From positions 1 through 55,521 of the forward strand of contig JBEKHC010000022.1 of assembly GCA_050012475.1 (NCBI GenBank): 55,521 nt of DNA, in the 5' to 3' direction. The translations under genes were made by a program, and so were the position numbers. The notes under the pieces are model-generated. The model saw only the letters and a list, made by a program, of their open reading frames with translations. It was not told the origin of the DNA and did no database searches. This stretch comes from Candidatus Velthaea sp. GTDB lineage: Bacteria; Vulcanimicrobiota; Vulcanimicrobiia; Vulcanimicrobiales; Vulcanimicrobiaceae. Numbering within the stretch: the first letter of the stretch is position 1; every line of letters starts with the position of its first letter. Of this stretch, positions 24,789 to 48,100 are shown piece after piece.

Positions 24789-24869
24789 GACGCGGCCACT
24801 CCGTTCCGGGAGTTTGGGGTTTTCGGCAGTCTCGCGGACGCAGCGCACGCACGGCTCTCCGCAAGGCTA

Positions 24870-25230: not shown

Positions 25231-25340
25231 GAATCGACTCCTTGCTCGGTGTGGCCGTGAAGCAAGCTTAGAGCGTCATCTTTATCTTAAAGTCGCTATG
25301 CCCAAGATGATCGGCGCTCGAGGGCGATCAAGAAGCGATA

Positions 25341-28300
25341 TCAGAGAGCAGCTCGCTCCACAGATAGTAACGGCAAAGAGACCGCAGCTAGTCTGCCGGC
25401 TTCCGGCTGCGGCAAGCCACCGAGCTTGGCGGCCCATCCGCGCAGTGCGTGGTGCAAATGCGCTTCCAACCGTGCCTCGCTCTCGAAAGGGACGCCCGCG
25501 CGATTGAAGTGCAAATGCAGCAAGATGCCGAGAATGTGACCGGCCGGCCGATCGAGCGCACCAGCTGCGTCGAGCGCGGCCAAATCCGACACGGCACGCA
25601 GCTCGGCGGCGGTTGCGTCGGTACCGGTTTCTTCAAGCCACCCGCAGATGCGGCGCACGAAGCCGTAGTCGATCGCGCCGACGTTGCGCCGTCGCCGCGC
25701 GCCGGCCTCGAGCCACGGCGCCAGATCGAACGTCGCGAACCACGCGCGGAGCAGCGGCACGCTCGAACGCAGCGCCGTAACCGCAGACGGGTCGCCGCTG
25801 CGCCGGGCGAGCGCTTCGAGCGTGCGCGCGCTGTCGGCGCAAACGAACTGCTCGATCGGCTCGAGCGCGGCGTCGCCGCCGAATCGTTCCGGCTCCGGTC
25901 GATACGTGTCGAAGCCGTATCGCTCGAGCCGGGCGCTATGCAGCAGCGGTTCGAGAATCTCCATGACGCGCGCCACGATCGGCGCGCCGCTTCCGCCGGC
26001 GGCGTGCAGCCGCAAACGCAGATGGTGCTGCGGATCGCGGTAACGTACGAAAAACCAGCGGTCGACGGCGTCTCCGCAAGCGTCGACGATCGACGGGATG
26101 ACGTCGCGAACGAGCGCGTCGAGCTCGTTCGCACATGCGTACAGCTTGACGTACACCCAGGCGCTGGCCGGTCCCAGCCCGCGCACGGGCGCGCCACGCA
26201 ACCGCGCCGGAGGACGAGCGGAACTCTCCGGCAACGTGCTGCCAGCAAAGGTCGCGACGAATTCGTGCGTAACCGAAGCGCCATCGCGTTGCAGCCAAAG
26301 CTCGTCGAAGCTCGGCAGCATCTCCTCGAAACACAGGCGCTCGCCGAGCACTTTCGGCAGCTGATCCCACAGCAGTTCGCGCGCGACCGGCGAGTCGAGA
26401 TCGATGAGCAATTTAACGTCGCGCTCGACGAGATACACCCAACGCGGAAGCCGCCAGGTCGTGTGCCAGCGTGCAAGCGCCGTTTCCCGCTGCGCGAGGT
26501 CGCCGCTCAATTCTTCACGCGGAATGAGCCAGCGTGCGACGCCGAGCACGACGCGACCGTAGCGCAGCCGCGGCAGAAACGGCAGCGTTCCCGCCGCCCG
26601 TCCCCAATCGAAAGGTTGCGGCGTTCGCTTGCGCGCGTTGGCCAACTCGGCGAGAAAGCGCATGTGCGGCGGCGCGAAGTACCCGGTTTCGAGCAGATAG
26701 CTTTCGTCGATCTCGATCCGCCGGCCCAGCGACGTCGCGTAGGCGACGAACGCTCCGTCCTCGAACGCGATGAGAATGTCGGCTGGGCTGATGCGGGTTA
26801 CGCCGGCTGCAGGCCGCGTTGCCGCGTCGCCGATCGCGTAGCGGTGCACCGGGCGGCGTGCGATGATGTTGCCGCCGCGCAGCTCGAGCGGAATGTAGTC
26901 GAGATCGGCGACCACGGCATCCGGCGCGGCTTGAACGCAGCGTGCGTTCGCGGCCCGTTTCTCGAAGTCCGCACCCAGCATGCCGCCTAGCCGGACGGCT
27001 GATTTGGCGACGCCGTTGGAGTTCGCGCCGGCCGTGGGCACGATGAGATAGTCGCCGGCGTCGATCGCGGCGCGATCGCGTGCGCACAGGGTGAAGCCGA
27101 TCTCGCACGTCTGTCCGATGCCGCTTGCGCGCAGGCCGGGGAAAAGCCGGTCGAAGCCGCGATCGTCCAGCGCAACTTCCTGCGCTCCGTCGCGCAGCGC
27201 GCCCGCCGCGAGATCGGCCAGCACTGCTTCGCGCGCGGGCGAAGGCGATTCGCGGGGCCGCCCCGGCGTCAGCACGAAATCGTCGTGCACGAGCTGCAGC
27301 AGCGGGATCGCGCGGTCAAGGCTTTCGTAGCGGTCGATGAACGCATCGATATACGCCTCGACGCGCGTCGACTTGCCGTCGGCGAGCATGATCTTGGCCA
27401 GTGTCCGCGCATCGGCGACGACGTTCGCGCCCAAGCCGCCGCCAAACTCGCACGCTAAGTCGACGGCGAACGCGTTGCCGCCGATCGGACACCAGGCTTG
27501 AAGGGCGCGATCGACAGCGTCGATGCGCTGCGACGTGAGCTCAAGCGTGCCGCCCGACTCGAGCGCCTGCAGTTCGGCGCGCAGTTCGCCCAGCCGGTCG
27601 GCAGCGGGATGTTCTTCGAATAAGGCGAGCAGCGATGCGAACGCGTCGCCGGCCAGCGACGGTTGCACCGGGGCGAGCACGCCGGCGTCGAGCAAGGCGC
27701 GCACGAGTCCCAGCGCTCTCTCGGTGCTCGAACCAAAGCGCGCTGCGGCGCGTTCGACCAAATCGTCGACCCGAACGGGCTCGGCGGCCGCCGTTCGCAA
27801 CCACCGCACCGCGGCGTTTTGCCGAAGATGAACCGTATCGTACCGCCACACCGGCAGTTCGCCGTCGCCGCTCGTCCGGCTGATGCGCGTAGCGTCGAAG
27901 ACGTACAATTCGTCGCCCCGCTCGATCGCAAGATCGTTGGCGACGATGCGGGCGCCCCCGAAATGGCGTCGATCTCGCAGCAGCGCCGCGGCGGTTGCAG
28001 CCAGCCAACGCGCGTCCGGCCGCACCGCCGGGCGCGGCTCTTGCGTGGTGTCGACGGCGAAGTCGGTGTGTTCGCCTGCCGCGACAGCCCCGCTCGCCGC
28101 GAACAAACCGAACGGCGTGCAGCGGGTGGCCATCCGCACAACGTAGCCGAGCGCCCGCAAGGGAGCATGCTTGTTGCGCGGCCGGCCGCCGCCCGCCCAG
28201 GTCGTGAGCGCTGCCGCCAATGTCGGCGACGCCAGCCGGATGGCCGAGCGCAGTGCGACGTTCGTGTTCAAAAGTTCGCGTAGCGACTCGTACGGCGCGG

Positions 28301-28403
28301 GCGACTCGTAGAGCGCGCGCACGACGTTCGCCTCGAGCGACGGCACGCGGCCGACGATCGGGATGTCGTCGCGCGCGCCCCGCGCGCGGCCCGTGTCTTC
28401 CAT
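25341..28403 (-). CDS. lanB: Full-length LanB (glutamyl-tRNA-dependent) dehydratase with fused glutamylation and elimination domains
   Basis: YVVRMATRCTPFGLFA, RPD, PFDWG..LPFLPRLRYG, LPRWV; elimination domain WVYVKLY, WFFVRYRDPQHHLRLR, YRPEPERFGG, HLHFNR; 1020 aa. Confidence 0.92.
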   Translation of the reverse strand: MEDTGRARGARDDIPIVGRVPSLEANVVRALYESPAPYESLRELLNTNVALRSAIRLASPTLAAALTTWAGGGRPRNKHAPLRALGYVVRMATRCTPFGLFAASGAVAAGEHTDFAVDTTQEPRPAVRPDARWLAATAAALLRDRRHFGGARIVANDLAIERGDELYVFDATRISRTSGDGELPVWRYDTVHLRQNAAVRWLRTAAAEPVRVDDLVERAAARFGSSTERALGLVRALLDAGVLAPVQPSLAGDAFASLLALFEEHPAADRLGELRAELQALESGGTLELTSQRIDAVDRALQAWCPIGGNAFAVDLACEFGGGLGANVVADARTLAKIMLADGKSTRVEAYIDAFIDRYESLDRAIPLLQLVHDDFVLTPGRPRESPSPAREAVLADLAAGALRDGAQEVALDDRGFDRLFPGLRASGIGQTCEIGFTLCARDRAAIDAGDYLIVPTAGANSNGVAKSAVRLGGMLGADFEKRAANARCVQAAPDAVVADLDYIPLELRGGNIIARRPVHRYAIGDAATRPAAGVTRISPADILIAFEDGAFVAYATSLGRRIEIDESYLLETGYFAPPHMRFLAELANARKRTPQPFDWGRAAGTLPFLPRLRYGRVVLGVARWLIPREELSGDLAQRETALARWHTTWRLPRWVYLVERDVKLLIDLDSPVARELLWDQLPKVLGERLCFEEMLPSFDELWLQRDGASVTHEFVATFAGSTLPESSARPPARLRGAPVRGLGPASAWVYVKLYACANELDALVRDVIPSIVDACGDAVDRWFFVRYRDPQHHLRLRLHAAGGSGAPIVARVMEILEPLLHSARLERYGFDTYRPEPERFGGDAALEPIEQFVCADSARTLEALARRSGDPSAVTALRSSVPLLRAWFATFDLAPWLEAGARRRRNVGAIDYGFVRRICGWLEETGTDATAAELRAVSDLAALDAAGALDRPAGHILGILLHLHFNRAGVPFESEARLEAHLHHALRGWAAKLGGLPQPEAGRLAAVSLPLLSVERAAL

Positions 28404-28600
28404 GGCGGAGACGATACGATGTTGGACGGCGTGCGGTCCACCACCCGAACGAGGTTAGTCATCAGGTGAGAGCGGAGTCGCGACCGAGTAGTCGGGACAC
28501 TTTTGGGACGCCCGTCGCGCTACGCTCACGGGACGGCGTTCTCCCGCAGGCACATCCGCATCGGGACGGCGGCGGGGAGAACAAGCATGGGTGGACCAGC

Positions 28601-31285
28601 ATGAAAGAACCTTCGCACGTCCTTTTAGCCAGCGCTGCGCGCGAGTCACGCCGGAGTTCGATCCGCAGCGTGTGGTCCAACGATTCGCTGGCCGTCGCCC
28701 CGCTCGAGCGCCCGCGCGTCGTGGCGCGCATCGAGCGTGCCGCGCGTTACAAGATCGCCGTCATCCTGGCGCCGGCCGGCCATGGAAAAACCATCGCACT
28801 GCGCGGCTTCATCGCCCGGCAGAGGGCGCCGAAGCTGTGGCTCGACGCTTCGCGCTGTACCGGCCGCGACGGATTTATTGGCGCGTTCGGGCGCGCGCTC
28901 GAAGCCGCCGTTCCGCCCGACACGCTCGCGGCAAGCTTGCAGCGATGTCGCGATTCGCTCGACCCGGCCGCGGCGGCCGACCTGCTCGCCGGCTGCCTTC
29001 CGGCCGGTGAACTGCTCCTGGCGGTGGACGGCCTGACCTCGGCGGTCCTCGACGATCCGGCGGCGTGCGGCTTGCTATGCGAACTCATCGAACGCAGCGG
29101 CGAGCACGTGCGCTGGCTGTTGGCGGCGCGCTCGTCGGGATCGTTGCCGCTGGCCTCGTGGATGGCGTACGGTGCGCTCGAAGCCCCAGTCGATGCGGCG
29201 GATCTGGCGTTGAATGAGGACGAAGCCCATGCATTGGCGGCAACCGCGGCAGCCTGCACCCCCGACGTGGTCGACGACGTGTTCGCGCTCACCGGCGGCT
29301 GGGCGGCGCCGTTCGTGTTAGCGCTGCGCGCGGGCGCTCAGCCCGGCCAATTGTGCGATCTGGCCGGACGGCACCGCATGCTCTGCGACTACCTTAGCGA
29401 GCAAATCTTCAGCGGACTCGACGTGGCCGAACGGGCGTTTTGCTTGGCCACCTGCGTGTTGGAATCGATCGACTTCCCGGTGGTGATGCGGCTATGCACC
29501 GCCGACGCGCGCGATACCCTCGAGCGTTTGCGCGCGCGGCTGCTGCTGCTGCCCAACGACGCCGCTTCGGGCTTCGTCTATCATCCGCTGTTTCACGCGT
29601 TCCTGGGGCATCAGCTGCGTTTACTGGGCGAGGCCGCATTTCGGTCGACGCTCTTAGCGGCCGCCACCGCGCTCGAAGGCGCTGAACGCTACGCCGCGGC
29701 GCTCGACGGATTTTTGCGCGCGCAATCGGCCCGCGAAGTCGAGCGACTGCTGTCCGAACACGGATACGCGCTGCTCGAATGTGGCGAAACCGCCGGCGTG
29801 GCCGACGGCATCGCGTTTCTGCGCCGTCGTGGACACGGGGGTTCGCCGCCGCTCCTGGCTTTGCGCGGCAGTCTCGAGGCCGCTGCCGGCAACGGCACCT
29901 GGGCCATGACGCTTTTCGAGACCGCGCTGGCGCAAGCGCGCGACACGAACGAACGCAACCGGATCGCGAATTGGTACGCGCTCGAATTGTTCACCCGCAA
30001 CGATCCCGTCGGTGCCGCGGCGCTCGAACGCGTCGTTCCGTTGCTCGAGAACGCCCGAAGAGAAGCGGCGGCATCACCCGACAGCGAAGCGGCATTGGCC
30101 GGCGCGCTCGGGGTCGCTTACATCATGCTCGACCGCATGAGCGATGCATCGCTGTGCATCCGCGAAGCGTTGGCTTCGGCGAGCGCGCAGGACAACCCGC
30201 GGCTGCAGGCGCTGGTCTACCATCAAGCCGGTTTCTTTGCGTACGCGTGCGGCGACGCGCAGCGTGCGTCACGGTTGGCGGCGGCCGCTACGCGGTTGGC
30301 CGTCGAAACGCACAACGCGCGCTTAGCCGCACGCAGCAGCAGCGTGCGATTCAGCATTGCGCGTGGGCTCGAGGACGACCCGCAGGGCGCCTACGAGCAT
30401 CTCGTGGCGATGCGCGAGTTCGCGCAGACGGCGGGCGAGCGATACTTGCAGTGCGAGGCGCTGGCCGGGATGCTCGATATCGAGGCCGAACGCGGCGATG
30501 CGGAGCGCTTGCGCGAGACCGAGGCGCAGCTGGAGGCCGGTCACGAAGGGCTCGACGTTCAGACGACGGCGGTTCTCCCGGTAACCGCGCTGACCGCGGC
30601 CTGGAACGGCGACTTTCAACTGGCGCACGATCGCCTCGCTCGTTCTGATGCCGATCAGCCGACGCTCTTGCGCAGCGCGCTGCGCTCGGCGGAGATCGCA
30701 CTATATGCAGCGGCGGCCGGTCGACGCGAAGCGGCGCTCGACGCCGCCGCGAAAGCCGCGCACCTGGCGCGAACGACGAAGCTGCGCCATGCCGAAGATC
30801 GGCGGCGACAGGTGCGCACGCTGGCACTGTGCGCGATCACGTACGTTACGGTCGGCAGCACACCAACTGCCAACGGCATCTTGCTCGAGCTGGAACGGGC
30901 GCGCCGCGAGATGTCCTCGCGCACGCGAACGATCGTCGAGGCGGCGCGCGCGCTGTACCTGCGCGCAGAGATCGGCGCCGCGCAACCGGTTGCCGCGGCG
31001 CTGGCGCGGTTGGGTTCCGCCGGTTACGGCGGTTTGGCGCGCTTGCTCGAGGCGTTGCCGTCGGTGCGGCTCGAAGCGCCGTCGGCGATCGCTTTGCTGA
31101 CGCCGGCGGAGATCCAGGTCCTGCGCGTACTCGCGCGCGGCGGCAGCAGCACGAAAGCCGCGGTCGTTCTCCAGCGCAGCGTCAATACCGTCAACGTCCA
31201 CGTGAAGTCGATCATGCGCAAATTGCGCTGCGCGACGCGTTACGACGCGATCGCCATCGCGCGCGAGCACGGGTTGGTCGACTGA
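28601..31285 (+). CDS. MalT-like ATP-dependent LuxR-family transcriptional regulator
   Basis: Walker A APAGHGKT, TGGWAA, YLSEQIF, YHPLFHAFL and a C-terminal LuxR HTH LTPAEIQVLRVLARG..SVNTVNVHVKSIMRKL. Start codon approximate. Confidence 0.88.
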   Translation: MKEPSHVLLASAARESRRSSIRSVWSNDSLAVAPLERPRVVARIERAARYKIAVILAPAGHGKTIALRGFIARQRAPKLWLDASRCTGRDGFIGAFGRALEAAVPPDTLAASLQRCRDSLDPAAAADLLAGCLPAGELLLAVDGLTSAVLDDPAACGLLCELIERSGEHVRWLLAARSSGSLPLASWMAYGALEAPVDAADLALNEDEAHALAATAAACTPDVVDDVFALTGGWAAPFVLALRAGAQPGQLCDLAGRHRMLCDYLSEQIFSGLDVAERAFCLATCVLESIDFPVVMRLCTADARDTLERLRARLLLLPNDAASGFVYHPLFHAFLGHQLRLLGEAAFRSTLLAAATALEGAERYAAALDGFLRAQSAREVERLLSEHGYALLECGETAGVADGIAFLRRRGHGGSPPLLALRGSLEAAAGNGTWAMTLFETALAQARDTNERNRIANWYALELFTRNDPVGAAALERVVPLLENARREAAASPDSEAALAGALGVAYIMLDRMSDASLCIREALASASAQDNPRLQALVYHQAGFFAYACGDAQRASRLAAAATRLAVETHNARLAARSSSVRFSIARGLEDDPQGAYEHLVAMREFAQTAGERYLQCEALAGMLDIEAERGDAERLRETEAQLEAGHEGLDVQTTAVLPVTALTAAWNGDFQLAHDRLARSDADQPTLLRSALRSAEIALYAAAAGRREAALDAAAKAAHLARTTKLRHAEDRRRQVRTLALCAITYVTVGSTPTANGILLELERARREMSSRTRTIVEAARALYLRAEIGAAQPVAAALARLGSAGYGGLARLLEALPSVRLEAPSAIALLTPAEIQVLRVLARGGSSTKAAVVLQRSVNTVNVHVKSIMRKLRCATRYDAIAIAREHGLVD

Positions 31286-31489
31286 CGCTAACCACGACAC
31301 TAACCACACGCACCGGCCGCTTTCACCCGGCGGCCTGCCGCGCATAGCGGCTACGTTCACGCCATCGTAGTGAGATACGGGCCGCGCGTAACCCGGTACG
31401 CTTCGATCATGTTTCCAGCCGATTGCGCGGGACTACCCCGGACATCGTTGCCCGACACTCCCGTCGCGCACCCCACCTACAGGTTCGAC

Positions 31490-32167
31490 ATGCACATCGT
31501 TCGCAGCTTTGCAAGCTTGACGCTCGCAGCCATCGTCTTGGCGCTTCCGGCGACCGCGCCGGCGGCAGCCGACGCACCGCTGACGCTGCTACCCGATCGC
31601 CCCGGCGATCGGGCCGCGTACACGTTCCGCTTCGAGGGCCACTTTGGCGTCGGACGTCAGGACAAACTCGACGACGTCATTTCGATCGGCCAGAAGAGCG
31701 CCGGCGTCGTCGTGCTCGATGCGAAAAAGTGTAAACCGTTCGAGTTGGACACCACGGTCGACGAAAGCGGCTTGCTCAAGCAAGCCGATCCGCCGTCTGC
31801 GCTGGGCGACATCATCATCGACTACAACTCGATCGTCAAGCTCGCGCAGCACGCGCGGCGCGAGCCCGGTGCCGCCTGGGAGACGCAAATTCCGGTGCGT
31901 CTGTCGCCCGACACCTGGCAAGATTTGCCCGTAGCGGTCAAAGTGACCGGCGCTGCGAACGGCGAGCTCGCCATCGAAGGAAACGGACACCAAGAGACGA
32001 TGCTGTATTTCTCGGGCTTCACGTTTCCGGTCGACGTGACGGTGCACATGGCCGAGGCGTTCCGTGCCGACGGACATCTGGCCGATGCCCATCTGTCCGT
32101 CAACGAAGTCACCGCCGGCGGCAGCGGGCCGCCGATCTCATACGCTTGGCAGATGCGGGCGCAATGA
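31490..32167 (+). CDS. Secreted hypothetical protein A (paralogue of 39810-40478)
   Basis: Signal peptide MHIVRSFASLTLAAIVLALPATAPAAA; stop overlaps the next ATG; shares motifs with protein B. Confidence 0.8.
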   Translation: MHIVRSFASLTLAAIVLALPATAPAAADAPLTLLPDRPGDRAAYTFRFEGHFGVGRQDKLDDVISIGQKSAGVVVLDAKKCKPFELDTTVDESGLLKQADPPSALGDIIIDYNSIVKLAQHARREPGAAWETQIPVRLSPDTWQDLPVAVKVTGAANGELAIEGNGHQETMLYFSGFTFPVDVTVHMAEAFRADGHLADAHLSVNEVTAGGSGPPISYAWQMRAQ

Positions 32168-33138
32168 TGTCGATGACGCCCGCGCCCTATCTCAAACCGT
32201 GGTGGCGCATCACGTACGAAACGGCGCGCGTGACCTTTCAGTACGGCGACGATGCCGTCGTGTGCGAAGGCAAGAGCGCCGCGACGCTCTTGCCGCGGCT
32301 GATTCCGCTCCTGGACGGCCGGCACGCGTTCGAGACGATCGTCGCCGAACTGGGACCGCAAACCGAACCCTTCGTGCGCAAAACGGTCGACCTGTTCGCG
32401 TCGCGCGGTCTGCTGGCCGACGGAGCGCCGGTCCCGGCCGACGTTTCGCCGGCCGCGCGCGAAGCGGTCCACTTCTTGGCGGCCACGCAGCCGCGCGGAG
32501 GCGACATGCGCGCCGACGCGGGGCGTCTGGGCGGTTTGCGCGTCGTGACGGTCGGCGATTCATCCGTAGCGAGCGAAACCGCTCGCGCGCTCGCCACTTC
32601 CGGCGCGACCGTGCAGCGCTCGAACTGGGACGCGCCCGCGTCGCAATTGGCAACGTGTGACTTGGTCGTGATCGCGCCCGCGCCCGGCGAATTGCCGCGC
32701 CTGGGTGCCTGGAATGCGCGCGCGCTCGAAACACAGACGACGTGGTTAGGCGTTTTGCCGTTCGACGGCCGGTTCGCTGCCGTCGGGCCGCTCTACATTC
32801 CGGGTGAAACCGCGTGCTACGAATGTTTTCGGCATCGCCGCGCGGCCAACGTCAGCTATTCCACGCAGTGGTGGGCAATGCAGGACACGCCGGCCGCCTA
32901 TCCGTCGCCGCTGCCGATCGAAATGATGCTCGCTGGGCTTGCGTCGCTGGCCGTGCTGCGCTGGCATTTGCGGCGCGACCCTGGCTTGCCCGGTGCTTTT
33001 TCGGCGCTCGAATTCAACGGTGAGATCGTGCTCGGCACGCACGTCGTCTATCGCGTTCCGCGTTGTCCGGCGTGCGCAACCGTCGGTCGAGCGGCGCCGG
33101 TCCTGCCGTGGTTCGAGGCACCCGCGTGGAGCGCTTGA
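32164..33138 (+). CDS. TOMM/LAP E1-like (ocin-ThiF) leader-binding partner of YcaO, probable N-terminal RRE
   Basis: LIPLLDGRH N-terminal region, VGPLYIPGETACYECF and RVPRCPAC. Confidence 0.88.
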   Translation: MMSMTPAPYLKPWWRITYETARVTFQYGDDAVVCEGKSAATLLPRLIPLLDGRHAFETIVAELGPQTEPFVRKTVDLFASRGLLADGAPVPADVSPAAREAVHFLAATQPRGGDMRADAGRLGGLRVVTVGDSSVASETARALATSGATVQRSNWDAPASQLATCDLVVIAPAPGELPRLGAWNARALETQTTWLGVLPFDGRFAAVGPLYIPGETACYECFRHRRAANVSYSTQWWAMQDTPAAYPSPLPIEMMLAGLASLAVLRWHLRRDPGLPGAFSALEFNGEIVLGTHVVYRVPRCPACATVGRAAPVLPWFEAPAWSA

Positions 33139-34460: not shown

Positions 34461-34473
34461 AAGTGCGTGCCTG

Positions 34474-35316: not shown

Positions 35317-35849
35317 GCGCGGCGGCAGCGCCGCCCAGCGCGCGAACGATCGTCACCTATTCGCTGGTGCAGGCGGGGATCGCGTTCTCGCTCGTCGCCG
35401 GCGGCGCGGTGCCGCTGCAATGCGACGCCTCGCGCGACCTGACCGGCATCGCGCTCGGCACCGCCGCCGGGATCATCTTGTTCTACCTGCTCGCCTACGA
35501 TGGCGCAGCCCGACCGCTGCGTGCCAAACGTTTCGCGATCGTCAAACTCGCCGCGCTGTTGGCGGTGGTCTCGGTGGCCGAAGAGATCGTCTGGCGCGGT
35601 TACGCGCTCGCGGCGCTGCGGGCAACGACCGGACCGCTGGCCGCGCTCGCCGCGACGTCGTTGGGCTTCGCCGCGGCGCACGCGACGACGCAAGGCTGGA
35701 CGGGCATTCGCACGCACTTGGTCACCGGAGCGGTGATCGGATTGGCGTTCATCCTCACGCGCAGTTTAGCGGCCGCCGTCGCCACCCACCTGTCGTACAA
35801 TTTGATGTTCGTGCGCGCGCTCGCGCCGCAAGGGAGATTCGAGCTATGA
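35313..35849 (+). CDS. CPBP (CAAX/Abi) intramembrane metalloprotease
   Basis: EEIVWRG, FAAAH and HLSYN motifs; hydrophobic; ATGA overlap. Confidence 0.88.
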   Translation: MSAAAAPPSARTIVTYSLVQAGIAFSLVAGGAVPLQCDASRDLTGIALGTAAGIILFYLLAYDGAARPLRAKRFAIVKLAALLAVVSVAEEIVWRGYALAALRATTGPLAALAATSLGFAAAHATTQGWTGIRTHLVTGAVIGLAFILTRSLAAAVATHLSYNLMFVRALAPQGRFEL

Positions 35850-36763
35850 TTGCATCGCGGCCGGCGCCGCTGTCACTGACCGTCGTGGGCCCGCGGCCGC
35901 TCGCGGAATTGAGCGGCGTTCACAAAGCCTATGGCGAGCGCGCGGCGTTGCGGGGCTTCGATCTGAAGCTGTACCCCGGTGAGATCGTCGTGCTGCTCGG
36001 GCCCAACGGTGCGGGAAAGAGCACCGCGATCAATGTGCTGAACGGCTTGCGCGAAGCCGACGCGGGCGACGTGCGCCTCTTTGGCGGCAACCCGCGAGCC
36101 GCGCGCACGCGGCGCGAACTGGGCGCCACGCCGCAGCAGCTCGACTATCCGGCGATGCTGCGCGTTCGCGAAATCGTCGAGCTGGTGCGCGCGCACTACG
36201 CGCAGCCGCTCCCGGCCGCCGAATTGCTCGAATCGTTCGGGCTCACGGACTTGGCCGGCCGGTGGGGCTCCGCGCTCAGCGGCGGTGAACGGCGCCGTTT
36301 GGCCGTGGCGCTGGCTTTCGCCGGCCGGCCGCGTTTGGCGCTGCTCGACGAACCGACGACCGGGCTCGACGTCGAGGCGCGCCGATTCGTTTGGCAGGCC
36401 GTGCGCGACTATGCCGGCGCCGGCGGATCGGTTTTGCTCACCACGCACTATTTGGAAGAGGCGGACGCGCTCGCGACGCGCGTGGTGGTCATCAACCACG
36501 GACGCGCGATCTTCAGCGGATCGGTTACCGACATCAAGGCTCGCATCGGTTGGAAACGCCTGACCGTTCGCGCGCCGGTCGAGCTCCCCATCGCGGGCAT
36601 CACCGCGGCCGACTGTGACGGTAACCGCTGCGTGCTGCGCACCAAGAACGTCGACGTCTTGGTGGCCGCGCTGCTCGAACGCGGCGTGCATTTCGACGAC
36701 ATCGAGATCGGCCCGGTTTCTTTGGAAGAAGCATTCCTCGACCTCACGGAGCGCGTGTCATGA
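35846..36763 (+). CDS. ABC exporter ATP-binding protein
   Basis: GPNGAGKST, LSGGERRR, LLDEPTTGLD, TTHYLEEA. Confidence 0.93.
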   Translation: MIASRPAPLSLTVVGPRPLAELSGVHKAYGERAALRGFDLKLYPGEIVVLLGPNGAGKSTAINVLNGLREADAGDVRLFGGNPRAARTRRELGATPQQLDYPAMLRVREIVELVRAHYAQPLPAAELLESFGLTDLAGRWGSALSGGERRRLAVALAFAGRPRLALLDEPTTGLDVEARRFVWQAVRDYAGAGGSVLLTTHYLEEADALATRVVVINHGRAIFSGSVTDIKARIGWKRLTVRAPVELPIAGITAADCDGNRCVLRTKNVDVLVAALLERGVHFDDIEIGPVSLEEAFLDLTERVS

Positions 36764-37503
36764 ACGCTGCAGCGCTGTTCGGCAAACACGTTTGGATCGA
36801 CACGGTCGAGCTGATCCGTTTGCCGATGTACTCGGTGTCGACCATGGTCTTCCCGACGCTGTTGTATTTGCTGTTCGGCCTGCCGTACGGCCATTCGGAG
36901 ACGGCATCGCGCTTGATCATGAGCTCGTTTTGCGCATACGCGGTCATCGGGGTCACCTTATTTCAATTCGGCGTGGGCATCGCCACCGATCGCAATTCGC
37001 CCTGGGAACAGTATCTGCGGGTGCTGCCCGTCAACGCGCTCACGCGCCTGGGCGCGCAAATCACTGCGGCGCTCTTCTTTGCCGCCGCATCGGTCGGTAC
37101 GGTCATCGCCGCCGCCGCGATCTTCAGTCATGCCGCGCCGAATGCGGAGTTGCTGGTCCGGCTCGTCCCCGTGCTGCTGCTCGGCAGCATCCCGTTCGCG
37201 CTGCTCGGGATCAGCATCGGGTATTGGGCCGGGCGGCGCAGCGCGTTGCCGATTGCCAACCTCATCTATTTACCGATGGCGCTCGGCGGCGGCCTGTGGA
37301 TGCCGCCCGAAGCATTGCCGCGCGCGATCGCGCTGCTGTCGCCGTATTTGCCCTCGCGCCATTACGGCGAGATTGCCTGGGCGGTTGCTCGCGGTGTGAC
37401 AACGCCGGCGATCTCGTGGCTTTGGCTGCTCGGCTACGCGCTGGTCTTCGGTTGCACCGCGGTTCTGGGATACCGGCGGGATGAGAGCCGCAACTATCGC
37501 TGA
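36760..37503 (+). CDS. ABC-2 type exporter permease
   Basis: About six hydrophobic segments; FQFGVGIATDR, LGGGLWMPP, SPYLPS. Confidence 0.9.
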   Translation: MNAAALFGKHVWIDTVELIRLPMYSVSTMVFPTLLYLLFGLPYGHSETASRLIMSSFCAYAVIGVTLFQFGVGIATDRNSPWEQYLRVLPVNALTRLGAQITAALFFAAASVGTVIAAAAIFSHAAPNAELLVRLVPVLLLGSIPFALLGISIGYWAGRRSALPIANLIYLPMALGGGLWMPPEALPRAIALLSPYLPSRHYGEIAWAVARGVTTPAISWLWLLGYALVFGCTAVLGYRRDESRNYR

Positions 37504-39796
37504 CGTGCGGCGGGTGTTGCCGGCGGTCGGCTTGGTGCTGGCGTTGGCGCTGCCGTTCGGCGCCGCCGGCGCGTCGGCGGCCGAACCGCTCGACGCACGC
37601 GTGCTCGTCGTCGATGCGGCCGGCATGCCCGCTCCGGGTGTCGACGTGTTCGCGCGCGAAAAGGGCACGCTCGTTTCGCTCGGACGCACCGATGCAAGCG
37701 GCGTGCTTACCGTGCACGTCGCGTCGGGCGAGTCGCTCGTGGCGCGCATCGGCAGCCGAACGTCGGCGCCGGTTGCGCTCACCGCTCGTCAAGCACGCAT
37801 CGTTTTGCCGGTCGCGAAGATCGGGACGGTGCGCGCGCACAACGACCGCGATGGCGAGCCGACGGTCACCAGCGAGAGTCCGAGCGCGATCGTTTTCGAC
37901 GACCTTGCATTGGCGCGCACGCTGGTGCCCAACTACCGTTCGCGCGCCGAAGGCGGCTCGGGGCATCAAATGCTCAACGGCGTTCCCCTCGACCTCCCCA
38001 GCGGTCCGCGGACCGACGCGTCCGATGAACCGGGCGTGCCCAGCGATCTCATCGAGTCGTTCAACGCGACGCAGGCCGACGACGGAACCGTGACGCCGAA
38101 CTACCATTTGCTCGCGCCGACGCCGCATCTCGCGATGCGCTTCGGCAGCGGTCTGAGCGCGTTCGACGGATCGTTGTGGAAAGCGGGAGTTTCGGGAACG
38201 GTGCACGGCTTGGGCTTCGCGGTTGCGGCGGCGACCGGCGGCGACGACGGTCCGCTTGCCGGCGCTACGCTCGTCGATGCCAGCGGCGCCGGCTACGATC
38301 ATTCCACGCATGCGCGTCACACCGACGTCTCATTCTCGTTCAGCCACGGCGTCGGATCGACCCAAATCAATGCCGCCGGCTTCAGCTCCCGGCAGCGCGG
38401 CGACGACATTGCTTTGAGCCTGCCGGGGACGCTGCTCGACGGCATCGGTCCGGGCAACGTCACCACTAAAACGTCCTCGTTCGAGTACGTCATCGCGATG
38501 CAGACGCACGGCCGCGATTCCTACCATCTGCTCGATGCGCGCTTTGCGGGCGGCAGTGCCGATGACGCGCCCGCGGCACTGGTGGACGGCGTGTCGGCCG
38601 GCTATACATCGGGCTATCGTTATTTTGGGAATTACGACGAGTTTGCGTTCACCCGCGCGTTCGGCCCCGCGTCGCTGACGCTCAAATCCACGTTCACCCA
38701 AACGGCGACGACGGGCTACGTTGCGACACCTTCGTTCGCCGCACAAGTGCCGGCGCATAATGGTCTAGCGACGCTGGGGCTCGATTACGAGCGTTCTACG
38801 GGATCCCACGGCTACGGTTTCGCGCTGGACGATGCGCAGCGCTCGGGTTCGTTCGCGGGCACCGACCTCGAAGCGCGCGCGCACGTCAAGACGATGCTCG
38901 CCGGGACGGCTCTGCAGCTTTCCGCTTCGCGCGCGCAAACGCAAGTGCAAGAAGCCTACAGCGCCGGTGCTTACGAGTTCGGCGCGCCATCGGCGGCGAC
39001 GATCACTTGCAGCCCGCCCTCGGCGACGGTCGTCGGTCCGGCCGGCGCGCTGGGAAGCCATCCGACGGCCGACACGCTGGACCTGCATCTGCGACGGCGG
39101 TTGGCGAACGAGGCGACGTTGAGCGCCGGCGGATTCGTGTCCGCCGGCCGCGACGGCCTGGTGTTCCCCGCCTCCGCACTGGGCGCCACGCTCGATCCCG
39201 CCTACCGCGCGCAGGTCGCCTCCGATGTCGCGCTGTTGTGCCCCGGGCGCACGCTCGGCGCCGCCGACTTATTCGTCCAGCGCTACGAAAGCGTTCCGCG
39301 CCTATCGGGGCGCGAATGGTTCGTCGATGCGACGTTGCCGCTGGGCGCCTTGCGCGCCGAAGCGACGTACGAAACGTATAGCTTGACCGCGCCGCAACTG
39401 CCCGCCGATCTCGCCGGCATCCCGAGCACGCTGGTGGCGGGCGCGCAAGTGCCGGGCGTTCCGCTCCATCGCGCGAACCTGCTGCTCTCGTACCGGCGGC
39501 TGCGCTTCGTCGCTGCGGCCGCGCTGCAATACACTTCAGACAACAACGTCGACGCCTTGCCCGGTCATGTCACCGTCGCCGCCGGTTTGCAACTTCCGGC
39601 GGGGCCCGGCGTCGTCGCGTTCGCCGCGCAAAATCTGTTCGGCGCATACAGCGGAACGTACGTTTCGCCGATGTTTGCCGTCCCGCTCGCGACGTCGAGC
39701 GGCGTGCTGCCGACGTTGGCGATTCCGCTTCGTCCGGCGTGGTCGCTGCGTTACACCCTCCCGCTCGGACCTTCATCGCTCGCCACGCGTCAGTAA
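37481..39796 (+). CDS. TonB-dependent receptor-like outer-membrane protein
   Basis: Signal peptide; N-terminal VVDAAGMPAPGVDV..TDASG (carboxypeptidase-regulatory-like); beta-strand patterning; GAQVPGVPLHRANL, NLFGAY and terminal WSLRYTL strand. No C-terminal Phe. Confidence 0.55.
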   Translation: MRAATIADVRRVLPAVGLVLALALPFGAAGASAAEPLDARVLVVDAAGMPAPGVDVFAREKGTLVSLGRTDASGVLTVHVASGESLVARIGSRTSAPVALTARQARIVLPVAKIGTVRAHNDRDGEPTVTSESPSAIVFDDLALARTLVPNYRSRAEGGSGHQMLNGVPLDLPSGPRTDASDEPGVPSDLIESFNATQADDGTVTPNYHLLAPTPHLAMRFGSGLSAFDGSLWKAGVSGTVHGLGFAVAAATGGDDGPLAGATLVDASGAGYDHSTHARHTDVSFSFSHGVGSTQINAAGFSSRQRGDDIALSLPGTLLDGIGPGNVTTKTSSFEYVIAMQTHGRDSYHLLDARFAGGSADDAPAALVDGVSAGYTSGYRYFGNYDEFAFTRAFGPASLTLKSTFTQTATTGYVATPSFAAQVPAHNGLATLGLDYERSTGSHGYGFALDDAQRSGSFAGTDLEARAHVKTMLAGTALQLSASRAQTQVQEAYSAGAYEFGAPSAATITCSPPSATVVGPAGALGSHPTADTLDLHLRRRLANEATLSAGGFVSAGRDGLVFPASALGATLDPAYRAQVASDVALLCPGRTLGAADLFVQRYESVPRLSGREWFVDATLPLGALRAEATYETYSLTAPQLPADLAGIPSTLVAGAQVPGVPLHRANLLLSYRRLRFVAAAALQYTSDNNVDALPGHVTVAAGLQLPAGPGVVAFAAQNLFGAYSGTYVSPMFAVPLATSSGVLPTLAIPLRPAWSLRYTLPLGPSSLATRQ

Positions 39797-39809
39797 GGAT
39801 TGGTCGAAA

Positions 39810-40478
39810 ATGTCGTTGTGCCGTGTTTCATCGTTCTTGGTCGCTGTGTTCGCGCCGTTGGTGCTCGCTGCGGCCGGCCCAAATGCGCTCATTCTCGGTC
39901 CCACGAGTGAGGGGGCCGCGCAATACCACTTATCGTTCGACGGTCATCTATGGAATGGCGCGCACAAAGTGTACGAGCATCAGATCTCGTTGCGGCCGGC
40001 CAGCGGCGCGGCCGAGCTGCAAGCGACCGTCGACGAACAAGAGTCCGGCAAACGCTTCGACCTGACCGTCAAACGCGACCCAGACGGGGTGCTCGTGTCG
40101 CCCGATCCGCACGCACAATTCAGCGCCTACAACGCGGTTGCGCGCGTGGCCGCTGCGGCTCCGGCGAAGCTCGCGGCGGGAACGGCATGGGATGCGCAAG
40201 TACCGGTCGACATCGGCGACGCGCTCTCCGTGAGCGTGCCGGTTCATGCCTGGGTCGTGAATATCGACGGCGGCCGAACCACCATCCAGGGTACGGGTTC
40301 GCTCGAGACCACCGTCACCTACAGCGGCTTCACCGTGCCGATCGATCTGTCGATCCGCTTGGCGTCGGCGTTCGCTGACGGCACGTTCGTCCGGGCCGAC
40401 TCGGCGGCCAAGGAAGTCATCCACGCCGGTCCGCAGATGCAAACGCTTGATTGGACCTGGTCGCTGACGCGCACGTGA
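39810..40478 (+). CDS. Secreted hypothetical protein B (paralogue of 31490-32167)
   Basis: Signal-like N-terminus; shares motifs with protein A (FxGH, AWxxQxPV, ETxxxxSGFTxPxD). Confidence 0.8.
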   Translation: MSLCRVSSFLVAVFAPLVLAAAGPNALILGPTSEGAAQYHLSFDGHLWNGAHKVYEHQISLRPASGAAELQATVDEQESGKRFDLTVKRDPDGVLVSPDPHAQFSAYNAVARVAAAAPAKLAAGTAWDAQVPVDIGDALSVSVPVHAWVVNIDGGRTTIQGTGSLETTVTYSGFTVPIDLSIRLASAFADGTFVRADSAAKEVIHAGPQMQTLDWTWSLTRT

Positions 40479-42163
40479 AGGCCTTCGCGCGCCGGCTGCT
40501 TGTCGTCGTCTTGTGTTGCGCGCTCGGCGGCGGGGCAGCAGCGGCGTCGGATGTGCCGCCGCTGGTGGACGACGCGCGTTTGCGCAACGCGCAAACCGAT
40601 GACGGTTGGCTCATGTACCGGCGCACCTACGATGCGCAGGGCTTCGCGCCGTTCGATCAGATCGACGCCGGCAACGTCGCGCAGCTGCGACCGGTGTTCA
40701 GCTATCCCACCGGATTGCCGCAGGGCCACGAAGCCGCGCCGCTGGTCAACGGCCATGTCCTCTACTTCACCACGCCGATGGACCACGTGGTGGCGCTCGA
40801 CGCGACGACCGGTCGCGAGCTGTGGACGTACGAGCACCCGTTTCCGCCGAAAACGCTGCGCACGGTGTGCTGCGACGTCGTCAATCGCGGTCTGGCGATC
40901 TACGGCGGGCTGCTGTATTTGGCGACGCTCGACGATCACGTGGTCGCACTCGACGCCCAGACCGGCGCGGTGGTGTGGAATAGGACGGTCGCCGAAAGCG
41001 GGATCGGCTATGCCATGACGTCCGCACCGCTGGTGGTCGGCGGACGCGTCATCGTCGGGATTTCCGGCGGCGAGTACGGCGCGCCCGGTTTCATCAGCGC
41101 GTTCGACGCACGGACCGGAGCGACGCTGTGGACCACGCCCACCACGCCGGCTTCGCACGAGCCGGGCAGCGAAACGTGGCCAGCCGGCCGGCCGGCGCGC
41201 GGCGCGGGTCCCTGGCTGACCGGATCGTACGACCCCGAAACCGACACCCTGTACTGGGGCACCGGAAATCCGTCGCCGTGGCGCGCCGACGTGCGCCCCG
41301 GTGCGAATCTGTTCAGCGACTGCGTGCTGGCTCTCGACCCGAGCACCGGCAAACGGAAGTGGTATTTTCAGTTCACGCCCAACGACGAGTGGGACTACGA
41401 CGGCGTCAACGAAAACGTGCTGGCCGATATCACCTACAAGAGCAATCGTGTGCGCGCGTTGCTGCACGCCGACCGCAACGGACAATTCGTCGTCCTCGAT
41501 CGGGTGAGCGGTGCGTTCCTTTACGCGACGCCGTTAGTGAAGAGTACCGCCGTGCTCGGCTACGATGCGCGCGGCAATGCACGCATCGATCCCGCTGCGC
41601 GCCTGCGCGGCAACGGGCCGGCCCACGTCTGCCCGAGTTCGATCGGCGGCAAGAACTGGTGGCCCAGCGCGTACGATCCGGTGTTGGGCCGGCTGTACGT
41701 GCCGCTGTCGCACATGTGTATGTCGATGACCAAGACAACTCTCGAAGACCGTGTCGGCGCGCCATATCTCGGTGTGTATTCGCGCCTGGTCCCCGAGCCC
41801 GGCAGCGGCGGCTTCGGCGAGGTGGCGGCGCTCGACGTTTCGACCGGCGCGCGCGTGTGGTCGCACACCTACGGTTTGCCGTGGAACGATGGCATGCTCG
41901 CGACCGGAGGCAACCTCGTTTTCAGCGGCTCGGCCGACGGCTATTTTCGCGCTTTCGACGCCCGCAGCGGCGACGTGTTATGGAACGCGAAGACGGATTC
42001 GGGGATCATCGGCGTCCCGATCGCGTATCGCGTCGACGGGAAGGAATACGTCGCGGTGCTCGCCGGTTGGGGCGGCGGCGTTGCGCTCTTCGGTGGTCCG
42101 GCGGCGACGGCCACCCAAAACATCCCGCGCGGGGGTCGCCTGTACGTTTACAGCTTACCGTAA
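40475..42163 (+). CDS. Periplasmic PQQ-dependent alcohol dehydrogenase (ExaF/PedH-like) with lanthanide-type DYD motif
   Basis: Signal peptide, vicinal CCDVVNRG, GGEYG, WGTGNPSPW, NDEWDYDGVNE (motif at 41390-41413), GGKNW; GTGA overlap with protein B. Confidence 0.88.
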   Translation: MKAFARRLLVVVLCCALGGGAAAASDVPPLVDDARLRNAQTDDGWLMYRRTYDAQGFAPFDQIDAGNVAQLRPVFSYPTGLPQGHEAAPLVNGHVLYFTTPMDHVVALDATTGRELWTYEHPFPPKTLRTVCCDVVNRGLAIYGGLLYLATLDDHVVALDAQTGAVVWNRTVAESGIGYAMTSAPLVVGGRVIVGISGGEYGAPGFISAFDARTGATLWTTPTTPASHEPGSETWPAGRPARGAGPWLTGSYDPETDTLYWGTGNPSPWRADVRPGANLFSDCVLALDPSTGKRKWYFQFTPNDEWDYDGVNENVLADITYKSNRVRALLHADRNGQFVVLDRVSGAFLYATPLVKSTAVLGYDARGNARIDPAARLRGNGPAHVCPSSIGGKNWWPSAYDPVLGRLYVPLSHMCMSMTKTTLEDRVGAPYLGVYSRLVPEPGSGGFGEVAALDVSTGARVWSHTYGLPWNDGMLATGGNLVFSGSADGYFRAFDARSGDVLWNAKTDSGIIGVPIAYRVDGKEYVAVLAGWGGGVALFGGPAATATQNIPRGGRLYVYSLP

Positions 42164-42190
42164 TTTGGGGGCCGGTTCGGCATGCCGGCG

Positions 42191-42241
42191 AAGCAGCGTC
42201 GGCGGGTATCGCACCGGAGCGATCGCCCGCCGCCGCTGTTT
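42191..42241. terminator. Long GC-rich stem-loop between the convergent PQQ-DH and precursor genes
   Basis: AAGCAGCG-T-CGGCGGG-T-ATCGC / ACCGGA loop / GCGAT-CG-CCCGCCG-C-CGCTGTTT. Confidence 0.6.
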
Positions 42242-42247
42242 GCGTGT

Positions 42248-42406
42248 TTAGAAAACGCTGTGGCAGCAGCAGCAGGATGAACTGCTGCAGCAGCTGCTCG
42301 CAGCGCGGCCGCGCGTTTGGGGTTCCGAGCTCATGACGGTGACGACGAGATCGTCGAAATCGTCGACGAATTCGGGCGTGATCGTATCGGTGACTTGTTC
42401 GCTCAC
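42248..42406 (-). CDS. RiPP precursor peptide, 52 aa: MSEQVTDTITPEFVDDFDDLVVTVMSSEPQTRGRAASSCCSSSSCCCCHSVF
   Basis: AGAAAGG RBS 7 nt before GTG, acidic leader, Ser/Cys-rich C-terminus and TAA stop. Adjacent to the YcaO/SagB/LanB cluster and below the ORF-track size cutoff. Confidence 0.92.
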   Translation of the reverse strand: MSEQVTDTITPEFVDDFDDLVVTVMSSEPQTRGRAASSCCSSSSCCCCHSVF

Positions 42407-42984
42407 GGTGGTGCCTTTCTGTAACGGCCGTCGAGTGACGGGGATGGTGCACGCCCGCGAGCAGGAGGCCGCACGACGGACGCACCTTGAGACTACGGCA
42501 GCCGGCGAGGCCGTGTCTCATATCCGACTTTGGGTAGGCGCCGGGTGAACCGCGTGGTGAGACGCAATCGTTTGTCGCGCCGTCAAAGCTGGGCTCCGTT
42601 GCGAAAGCAGCTTTTCATCCGCTCCCTAACGTACCGGTTCTCGTCGAAATGCTCGCGTCACAAAGCGCCGATCCGAGAAGCGGTTAGTAGCGAGAAGCGT
42701 CTAAGCGGCAGGTCCGGTCGATGCTCGGATGTGCGTGGGGCGGAACGGCTCCCGGCCGCGAGCGACCGTCCGGTCCGACCGTCGGTGCAGCGGGCGGCAT
42801 CAACGACTTATCTAACTTCGCGCGCTGGCTCGCGCGCGCTACGGGTTCGGCACCCAGCAAGTTTCGCTGCGCAGAGATAGGATCTCTAGTCCTTTTGAAT
42901 TGCCGAGCGCGAGTACGGCCTGCGATGGAATCGAACTGCAGGCGGCTACAACCGACGAGAACGATCAGGCGGGATGATTGGCGA

Positions 42985-47323: not shown

Positions 47324-47325
47324 CG

Positions 47326-48096: not shown

Positions 48097-48100
48097 AGCC

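Follow-up and report, generated by a model that had tools for sequence, protein, structure and literature searches.

A putative linear azole-containing peptide cluster with a streptolysin-S-type core and a full-length LanB in Candidatus Velthaea sp.

We analysed a stretch of 55,521 nucleotides from Candidatus Velthaea sp. (assembly GCA_050012475.1, contig JBEKHC010000022.1; hereafter, the window), in which positions 25341 to 42406 carry a predicted gene cluster for a peptide that is made on ribosomes and modified after translation (RiPP). The cluster joins a streptolysin-S-type set of azole-forming enzymes to a full-length LanB dehydratase, an outer-membrane protein accompanied by two secreted paralogues, and a pyrroloquinoline quinone (PQQ) dehydrogenase. 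It is highly likely that the cluster makes an azole-bearing peptide, and rather probable that it is a functional cluster of the linear azole-containing peptide (LAP; also thiazole/oxazole-modified microcin, TOMM) type operating by the pathway proposed here; a linear peptide with both azoles and dehydroalanines is our best prediction for the product. The pathway is built on the genes present, the families and folds of their products, synteny and the homology among precursors, and it is from these that we infer the chemistry, the order of the steps and the direction of transport.

In the proposed pathway the E1-like protein would bind a 52-residue precursor via its leader, the YcaO enzyme would cyclodehydrate the six Cys, and perhaps some of the Ser, of the core SSCCSSSSCCCCHSVF, and the SagB-type dehydrogenase would oxidise the resulting azolines to azoles. 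LanB would act next: leftover Ser would be glutamylated and eliminated to dehydroalanine, with the product staying linear. The CPBP protease would then cut off the leader near the conserved junction of G-x-A-A and S-S, and a DrrAB-like ABC-2 transporter would carry the peptide out of the cytoplasm. An envelope module, made up of one or two proteins with a barrel around a helix and a short, divergent Oar-type TonB-dependent transporter (TBDT), would handle this hydrophobic product in the periplasm and at the outer membrane, and would most likely take it across the latter. A MalT/LuxR regulator would control the gene set.

Azole enzymes, precursor peptide and their relatives

Family calls were made by Pfam and NCBIfam profile scans of the open reading frames (ORFs) of the window. 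Ten genes, tightly packed on one strand (31490–42163, forward), form an operon in the order secreted paralogue A, E1-like protein, YcaO, SagB, CPBP protease, ABC ATPase, ABC-2 permease, a 771-residue outer-membrane protein, secreted paralogue B and PQQ dehydrogenase. An earlier reading of this DNA, made from the letters and ORF translations alone (the sequence-only reading), had described all the junctions as overlaps or gaps of 13 nucleotides or less; if each gene is started as close as possible to the stop upstream of it, the nine junctions measure −4, −4 (alternatives to −76), +13, −4, −4, −4, −23 (or +1), +13 and −4 (or −28) nucleotides, which bears this out. All the parts that it named were found again where it had placed them in the Pfam, NCBIfam and ORF listings, with starts mended for SagB (34474), the ABC ATPase (35846) and, probably, the PQQ dehydrogenase (40475) and the regulator (28601, not 28220). 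The enzyme set itself—E1-like protein, YcaO and SagB with a full-length LanB, a CPBP protease and an ABC-2 transporter—is real and fits the azole and dehydroalanine peptide that it had envisaged. Every ORF of the cluster is intact in the window.

The E1-like protein (32164–33138, forward) is called as a SagC-type leader-binding cyclodehydratase partner by TIGR03882 (47.3 bits, cut-off 36.9), and scores 30.6 bits against the SagC family TIGR03603, under the cut-off of 187. Our comparisons cover 400 other genomes of the phylum, including 15 unpublished ones, none of which is a carrier or contributes any sequence here; orthologues of the E1-like protein are present in five relatives with 38–61% identity. 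The YcaO cyclodehydratase (33126–34460, forward) belongs to the SagD family (PF02624, 220 bits; TIGR03604, 276.7 bits, cut-off 219) and has a PHPFP C-terminus (...NSFPHPFP), that is, a PxPxP tail. Its start candidates, 33063 to 33135, all overlap the end of the E1-like gene, and its nearest solved structures are the cyanobactin enzymes MusD, LynD and TruD, at E-values of 7e-25 or weaker. The SagB-type FMN dehydrogenase (34474–35316, forward), predicted to turn azolines into azoles, scores 85 bits against PF00881 and 146.4 bits against TIGR03605 (cut-off 78.4), and matches the McbC structure 6gos with an E-value of 2.5e-16. It is followed by a CPBP/CaaX-like intramembrane protease in a SagE-like position (35313–35849, forward; PF02517, 57.8 bits), a DrrA-like ABC transporter ATPase (35846–36763, forward; PF00005, 90.7 bits; TIGR01188, 179.7 bits, below cut-off) and an ABC-2 type permease (36760–37503, forward; PF01061, 36.9 bits, and PF12698).

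The precursor gene (42248–42406, reverse) is convergent with the operon. It begins with GTG, 7 nucleotides past GAAAGG, and encodes the 52-residue peptide VSEQVTDTITPEFVDDFDDLVVTVMSSEPQTRGRAASSCCSSSSCCCCHSVF, the core of which holds 12 contiguous Ser and Cys residues (SSCCSSSSCCCC) preceded by G-R-A-A and not directly by Gly. Precursors in related loci were sought as small frames rich in Cys, Ser and Thr, and homologues were found in six relatives: G331, G293, G355, G218, G241 and G145. The same scan found no precursor-type frame in the loci of G231 and G095. The G331 precursor (MEKNMTEISTASDLVSELDSLVVVTMSSVTTGRGKAASSCCCSSSCCCCSSGGSNQSLSA), located between the genes for paralogue A and the E1-like protein, ends in ...DSLVVVTMSSVTTGRGKAASSCCCSSSCCCCSSGGSNQSLSA and shares DxLVV(T)VMSS...GRG(R/K)AASSCC with that of the window, a clear homology. 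Precursors occupy the same position in G293 (...GLARIASSCSCSCSCSVVIEVNVS), G355 (...GLARLAETCITINCCCCCCCCA) and G218 (MEQITENIDQLLDVSVTEIGGDEDATGLAASSTCTSSTTCKVSLL), where the leaders end in G-L-A-(R)-x-A and are followed by a core rich in Cys, Ser and Thr. More distant Cys-rich precursors adjoin the YcaO and SagB genes of G241 (one) and G145 (two). The window precursor is validated by these homologous precursors in the clusters of relatives, and its leader is likely cleaved at the common G-x-A-(x)-A junction before the core.

The distribution of the cluster is sporadic: a YcaO query matched 2 of 40 relatives and none of the three genomes of the same genus. A hidden Markov model (HMM) of the secreted paralogues matched 22 of the 400 genomes, and the 13 best-scoring stretches, from 11 of these, were compared with the window proteins by tblastn. 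G331, G095 and G293 are placed in the family of the window genome. G331 has the full set in the window order, LanB and regulator followed by paralogue A to PQQ dehydrogenase, at 46–71% identity; G293 has paralogue A through PQQ dehydrogenase in the window order (31–58%), without LanB or regulator. The order paralogue, E1, YcaO, SagB, CPBP, ABC, ABC-2, outer-membrane protein, paralogue is kept in both (37–68%) and, with rearrangements, in G355, G231 and G218. The G218 cluster reads regulator, three tandem paralogues, E1, YcaO, SagB, ABC, ABC-2, outer-membrane protein, PQQ dehydrogenase and LanB; most of its genes lie in several frames (L022/L052), and the breaks in G218 and G331 may reflect either decay or long-read indel errors. 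G355 and G231 encode the azole enzymes, the transporter, the outer-membrane protein and a single paralogue, with no PQQ gene; G241 and G145 have distant YcaO and SagB genes together with an ABC ATPase, an outer-membrane protein and a paralogue. The remaining loci hold an outer-membrane protein and a paralogue only (G095), a paralogue alone (G358 and G112) or nothing that tblastn matched (G316). So far, the cluster family appears confined to Eremiobacterota relatives.

LanB and the comparison with known pathways

LanB (25341–28403, reverse) is a full-length, fused enzyme of 1020 residues: PF04738 (367 bits) and PF14028 (127 bits) match within one ORF, as does TIGR03891. Its glutamylation domain (Lant_dehydr_N, residues 50–678) and elimination domain (Lant_dehydr_C, residues 749–987) are the sole matches of either kind in a profile search of the whole genome, and its nearest solved structure is MibB (5ehk, E-value 6.5e-53). 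The lineage is narrow, with four close relatives at 53–99% identity and the remainder at 31% or less, the latter being ordinary full-length lantibiotic dehydratases, largely from Actinobacteria. LanB of the cluster type is seen only beside these clusters, namely in the window, in L005 (a metagenome contig 92% identical to the window), in G331 and in G218. Its position varies, divergent and upstream in the window and G331 and directly 3′ of the PQQ gene in G218, and the G331 copy is split over two frames near residue 414 (L017, 4385–7322).

It is fairly probable that LanB acts on the same peptide as the azole enzymes. The competing possibility, that LanB stands outside the pathway as a leftover or independent dehydratase of the class I lanthipeptide type and the product is a plain polyazole peptide, we regard as quite improbable. 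It would account for the loci of G293, G355, G231 and G241, which are without cluster-type LanB (four of the six relatives counted). The other LanBs that G293 (C93), G355 (C32) and G331 (C25) encode elsewhere in their genomes are also in keeping with it; being 29–30% identical and at other loci, these were rejected as unlinked partners of the clusters. A further point in its favour is that known pathways yielding azoles and dehydroalanines use split LanBs (PMC10676384 and PMC4603692). An independent LanB is, however, hard to reconcile with a lineage that is found only next to these clusters and stays with them while shifting position between genomes, and neither another precursor nor a LanC lies near it. 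The three LanB-bearing clusters (window, G331 and G218), moreover, all have Ser/Thr-rich cores that begin with AASS, which suggests a correlation between the presence of LanB and cores of this kind. With respect to the cluster family as a whole, LanB is an add-on and not a constant. As a side observation, the LanB of G355 (L054, C32, 8923–11847, reverse; 29% identical to that of the window) lies about 1.7 kb from a lanthipeptide-like small ORF (6991–7173, reverse) ending in ...TTTATGYSHTCTATRACTHICCTQTTVTVP, and belongs to a separate class I-type cluster.

A linear azole and dehydroalanine product is predicted because the means of cyclising it are missing. No LanC is encoded in the window, and the only LanC-like match in a profile search of the genome lies on contig C10, in a frame of 1093 residues; this domain (C10:55723–56766, L031) is probably part of the class II–IV lanthipeptide synthetase of a separate cluster. 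A stand-alone [4+2] cycloaddition enzyme of the Lant_dehydr_C type is likewise absent from the genome, in which the sole PF14028 match is the one within the fused LanB. Pfam found no DUF4135 (LanM-type) domain among the cluster proteins.

How does this gene set compare with known systems? The cytolysin (streptolysin S) group of TOMMs is described in PMC4603692 by discrete C and D proteins, SagB, a CaaX-like protease and an ABC transporter, with precursors in which Gly is followed by at least 10 contiguous heterocyclisable residues. The window has the discrete C and D proteins, SagB, the CaaX protease and the ABC transporter, and its precursor departs from that description. Likeness to sagA-I lies in the discrete E1-like C protein, the YcaO D protein, SagB, CPBP protease, ABC-2 transporter and short precursor with a long Cys/Ser run. 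Unlike sagA-I, the window adds a full-length LanB, a MalT-type regulator, an outer-membrane protein, two barrel proteins and a PQQ enzyme; the host is a high-GC diderm, the precursor scores below the family cut-off, and the heterocyclisable run comes after G-R-A-A.

PMC10676384 lists the systems that combine azoles with dehydrated residues: in thiopeptides and peptides of the goadsporin type the LanB is split, and dehydrazoles rely on an enzyme of the LanM type. The predicted product resembles LAPs of the goadsporin and coryneazolisin type in its azoles, its LanB-type dehydroalanines and the lack of a [4+2] cyclase (PMC4603692 and PMC10676384). The gene set differs from theirs: their LanB is split and the goadsporin cyclodehydratase is fused, whereas the window has a LanB of 1020 residues and separate C and D proteins, and their clusters come from Actinobacteria and have no outer-membrane module. 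With thiopeptides the window shares a YcaO, a dehydrogenase and LanB-type dehydration on a Cys/Ser-rich core; unlike them, its genome has no stand-alone [4+2] enzyme and its LanB is not split. Class I lanthipeptide clusters pair LanB with LanC, and the window has the former only. Dehydrazoles such as carnazolamide (PMC10676384) are hypermodified linear peptides with many azoles and dehydroalanines, as is predicted here, and differ in that YcaO is accompanied by a DUF4135 LanM-type dehydratase with a fused cyclase domain and in having a long leader of the NHLP type; the window enzyme is of the LanB type and the leader is short.

A fused LanB together with a streptolysin-S-type set of C, D and B proteins thus belongs to none of the known azole and dehydro classes. 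A full-text literature search, with thin coverage of subscription journals, found no description of this architecture. The sequence-only reading had suggested a new RiPP subfamily: the architecture is indeed undescribed in the literature searched, and the cluster is nonetheless a variant of LAP/TOMM, not a new category. A full-length class I LanB is here combined with an azole synthetase of the streptolysin S type, which is undescribed in that same literature. The combination lends itself to a clean test of the way in which YcaO and LanB divide between them a core consisting of Ser and Cys only.

Envelope module and PQQ dehydrogenase

The host is a diderm: the genome encodes one Omp85/BamA, and eight TonB_C matches and 14 canonical TonB-receptor barrels exceed their cut-offs. 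PF00593 matches 15 proteins of the genome, none of them on contig C22, which carries the cluster. The 771-residue outer-membrane protein of the operon (37481–39796, forward) is annotated from its predicted fold as a divergent TBDT-like protein. The model (8-row alignment, pLDDT 73.6) consists of a signal peptide, a beta-sandwich at residues 36–108, a short plug at about 119–210 and a barrel extending to 762. Its top Foldseek matches are the siderophore receptors PfeA, FepA and PirA (E-values of about 1e-19, PfeA 8e-20; 10–12% identity), and VIA-align places model residues 119–762 on BtuB 9–594 with a Z-score of 30.0 and a root-mean-square deviation of 3.1 over 495 aligned residues. The protein therefore models as a plug-plus-barrel TBDT. 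This identity rests on the predicted fold, since the Pfam families Plug (PF07715) and TonB_dep_Rec (PF00593) give no match at E ≤ 1; the TonB-like receptor of the sequence-only reading accordingly gains the fold and lacks the Pfam match. Its closest kin within the phylum measure about 1050 residues and have CarboxypepD_reg and Plug domains, which is the Oar architecture, and I-G-x-V-x-A at residues 114–119, aligned with a motif of these Oar-like relatives, is a candidate TonB box.

In Myxococcus xanthus the secretion of PopC depends on an Oar-type TBDT and on its TonB box (PMC6434023). Compared with Oar as described there, the window protein has, by its predicted model, the same N-terminal beta-sandwich, plug and 22-strand barrel; it is about 300 residues shorter, has no Pfam TBDT domain match and is paired with a secreted barrel protein. 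The cargo of Oar is the protease PopC, whereas that of the window protein would be a small modified peptide, its export role being putative.

Paralogue A (31490–32167, forward; 225 residues) is encoded by the first gene of the operon and has a Sec-type signal peptide; paralogue B (39810–40478, forward; 222 residues) was identified by homology to it. The two are 30% identical over 224 columns (E-value 4e-19), and the pair of secreted paralogues seen in the sequence-only reading is thereby confirmed. The structure model by which we describe the family (pLDDT 84.6) is an 11-strand barrel wrapping one helix. In fold it comes closest to the N-terminal barrels of the lipid-transfer proteins ApoB, lipovitellin and vitellogenin (Z-scores of 11–11.8, about 175–182 aligned residues), followed by autotransporter barrels (8.6–9.6) and LolA (8). 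As modelled, this is a barrel able to hold something, a fold that gives no function. The paralogues fall into no Pfam or NCBIfam family: a Pfam scan of nine of them at E ≤ 10 returned scattered single matches, and DUF6263, considered as their family, was unconfirmed by it. A word search found four relatives among 5.8 billion protein clusters, and an HMM scan of 1.84 billion representatives gave 125 matches at E ≤ 1e-3, 33 of them at E ≤ 1e-30.

A profile of the outer-membrane protein run over the 400 genomes scored 942–1042 bits in seven of them and, in two pieces, 269 and 232 bits in G218; the next best score was 195. The cluster-type protein is thus present in eight of the 400 genomes, with a paralogue adjacent in all eight and YcaO and SagB at the same locus in seven. 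Loss of the accessory genes from homologous clusters, which the sequence-only reading had named beforehand as speaking against it, was not seen: the outer-membrane protein and the paralogues are kept, and the PQQ gene is kept in three relatives. From this conservation the accessory genes appear to be no chance neighbours, and we consider it quite likely that the system includes the outer-membrane protein and the paralogues.

As to the direction of transport, we lean slightly towards export over import, with the classical import role as a serious competitor. Export is favoured by the secretion precedent of Oar and by the locus of G355, where the export block itself contains the outer-membrane gene, flanked by those for CPBP and ABC. 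The 'periplasmic steps' of the sequence-only reading stay at the level of inference. The alternative is that the outer-membrane protein and the barrel proteins are a receptor and periplasmic-binding pair re-importing the peptide as a metallophore or signal: the ABC-2 pump would secrete the peptide, which would pick up its cargo outside and return through the TonB-energised barrel, with the PQQ dehydrogenase as a possible beneficiary. Such re-import is consistent with the full plug-plus-barrel fold of an importer in the model, which has siderophore, cobalamin, copper and PQQ importers as its top matches, and with IGxVxA being conserved where the relatives place their TonB box. TonB-dependent receptors in biosynthetic clusters usually mark metallophores, as methanobactin with MbnT does, and the PQQ enzyme with its D-x-D motif stays with the cluster in three relatives of differing flanks, in G218 between transporter and LanB. 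On the other hand, the D-x-D motif is not specific to the cluster, as it occurs in 12 of 12 PQQ paralogues; the PQQ gene is missing from the locus in G355, G231 and G241 (three of the six relatives counted); the cluster encodes no inner-membrane importer; and fully aromatised polythiazoles with dehydroalanines are poor ligands for hard lanthanide ions. In addition, CPBP and ABC-2 make up the streptolysin-S export and immunity set (PMC4603692). On balance we judge re-import unlikely. Its most specific version, a ribosomal metallophore exported by ABC-2 and recaptured by the TBDT and its barrel partner to supply lanthanide or copper to the PQQ enzyme, is very unlikely; if true, a PQQ enzyme would for the first time be linked to an acquisition system that is based on a RiPP.

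The last gene of the operon (40475–42163, forward; probable start at 40475, judging from the sequence) encodes a PQQ-dependent alcohol dehydrogenase of the methanol/ethanol family, predicted to be periplasmic (TIGR03075, 561 bits, cut-off 480). Its best solved relatives are 6zcv and 6zcw (E-value 5e-120), and it resembles the lanthanide-dependent PQQ dehydrogenases PedH and ExaF in having a vicinal Cys pair and a D-x-D motif, WDYDG aligning with WDFDG of the two structures; unlike them, it is embedded in a RiPP operon. According to PMC11996626, 6ZCW is the lanthanide-dependent PedH and D-x-D is the diagnostic motif. WDYDGVNE is present in the window enzyme and three cluster-linked orthologues. 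However, D-x-D occurs in 12 of the 12 PQQ dehydrogenases compared from these genomes, whether linked to a cluster or not (G000 C91, C5 and C65; L044–L051); it is therefore a trait of the lineage and not of the cluster, and as specific evidence for a lanthanophore it was dropped. As a sequence feature it hints at general lanthanide use in this Eremiobacterota-related lineage. The genome encodes pqqC, pqqE and three PQQ dehydrogenases over cut-off.

Orthologues of the PQQ gene are attached to the cluster in G331, G293 and G218. The flanks of the cluster differ among the window, G331 and G293 while the PQQ gene stays beside paralogue B; in G218 it sits between the outer-membrane gene and LanB. 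A tree groups the window copy with those of G331 and G293 in a single clade (support 92/93) apart from the unlinked paralogues, and does not resolve the G218 copy. Of the copies examined from G355 and G231, where the clusters are without PQQ, none falls into that clade. Cytochrome c is encoded next after the PQQ gene in G331 (L018, 6542–7000) and fused to the C-terminus of the enzyme in G293 (CAACH; L019, 9064–9513); the window copy has neither.

On these comparisons the PQQ gene would best be described as a conserved passenger of the operon, and a functional tie between the enzyme and the peptide is no better than tentative. One form that such a tie could take is periplasmic tailoring, with the enzyme oxidising a Ser/Thr hydroxyl or another alcohol of the exported peptide. 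Translational coupling to paralogue B (the GTG at 40475 overlaps the stop by 4 nucleotides), the single clade of window, G331 and G293 copies with its absence from G355 and G231, and the embedding of the G218 gene between cluster genes are all compatible with tailoring. We nevertheless find it improbable: the enzyme is an ordinary member of its family whose best solved relative, PedH, is of broad range, cytochrome c adjoining or fused as in G331 and G293 is the usual respiratory arrangement, and the G218 copy cannot be counted towards the clade. We know of no PQQ dehydrogenase that acts on a RiPP, and a literature search on lanthanophores, TonB, PQQ and RiPPs turned up none. The repeated linkage, if functional, would point to new periplasmic RiPP tailoring or new metal acquisition.

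Several observations weigh against the pathway with export across the outer membrane. The precursor scores 17.4 bits against the streptolysin S family TIGR03602, under the cut-off of 35. It is also placed unlike those of the relatives: in the window the paralogue A and E1 genes overlap and the precursor is encoded on the other strand, at the far end of the cluster, to which in view of the synteny it appears to have been relocated. No RNA run was among the public runs found to contain 32407–42406. LanB accompanies just two (G331 and G218) of the six relatives that have a precursor with YcaO and SagB, and the core of G293 is Ser-rich, yet no cluster-type LanB lies within 20 kb of it; with the G331 copy split as well, the link between LanB and the precursor is circumstantial. 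On the envelope side, TBDTs import in nearly all known cases, and one within a biosynthetic cluster classically means re-uptake; the ABC-2 exporter by itself is uninformative about the outer-membrane step. Finally, the 20-kb locus of G095 encodes the outer-membrane protein and a paralogue but neither YcaO nor SagB, which tells us that the envelope module can exist without azole machinery. The G095 pair (L023, contig C2, 7735–10654) lies downstream of two ABC ATPase-like genes, and is possibly a form of the module that is orphaned or acts as a receptor only.

Monoderm bacteria are the main known source of streptolysin-S-like azole peptides, and to our knowledge it is not understood how diderm producers get so insoluble a peptide across the periplasm and outer membrane. 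The cluster family offers a concrete, conserved candidate for this machinery: a short Oar-type TonB-dependent barrel and a new family of barrel-around-helix proteins. As the host lineage, the peat and soil relatives of Eremiobacterota, is almost entirely uncultured, the product represents unknown chemistry.

Origin of the sequence, regulator and flanking genes

The source genome is a bin of 204 contigs, 93.8% complete and 5.3% contaminated. The 10-kb cluster core is present in 20 public DNA runs, seven of which contain at least half of the sampled words; the runs come from 14 coded studies of peat and soil metagenomes. Contigs of four public runs, each from a different study, cover 30 of 30 bins of 25000–43500 in each run. 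Joints with sides of 20–21 letters in this comparison were disregarded as low-complexity, GC-rich word matches. Single contigs bridge 39682–40744 (outer-membrane protein, paralogue B and PQQ gene), 40102–41070, and 41385–42940 (PQQ gene, precursor and next gene). An assembly chimera as the origin of the cluster was ruled out, as contigs from independent runs span the junctions, and the odd position of the precursor is genuine because such contigs bridge it to the genes on both sides.

The regulator (28601–31285, forward) is of the MalT/LAL-type STAND class with a C-terminal LuxR helix-turn-helix (GerE, 40.6 bits; MalT NF003420, 108 bits over residues 161–552), and is divergent from LanB. Its ORF is open from 28220; inspection of the starts and an orthologue of 887 residues in G331 place the start probably at MKEPSH, at 28601. 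Orthologues in G331 and G218 are 47% and 34% identical, respectively. A search of 28000–43000 found one promoter-like site (1.0 expected) and four terminator-like sites (13.5 expected), nothing above chance.

A 131-residue ORF (24734–25129, reverse) abuts the 3′ end of LanB and covers only positions 3–69 of the 224-position DUF899 model; this truncated DUF899-type gene may be a scar of cluster insertion. Further upstream, a protein of 1169 residues (8174–11683, forward) combines HisKA/HATPase_c with a receiver, a SpoIIE phosphatase and another kinase-like domain, HATPase_c_2, an architecture in which a two-component system is fused with partner-switching. A few kb downstream of the cluster lies a lactate utilisation operon (45779–50166, forward), in which a lactate permease is followed by LutA-, LutB- and LutC-like genes (CCG, LUD plus 4Fe-4S, and LUD, respectively).

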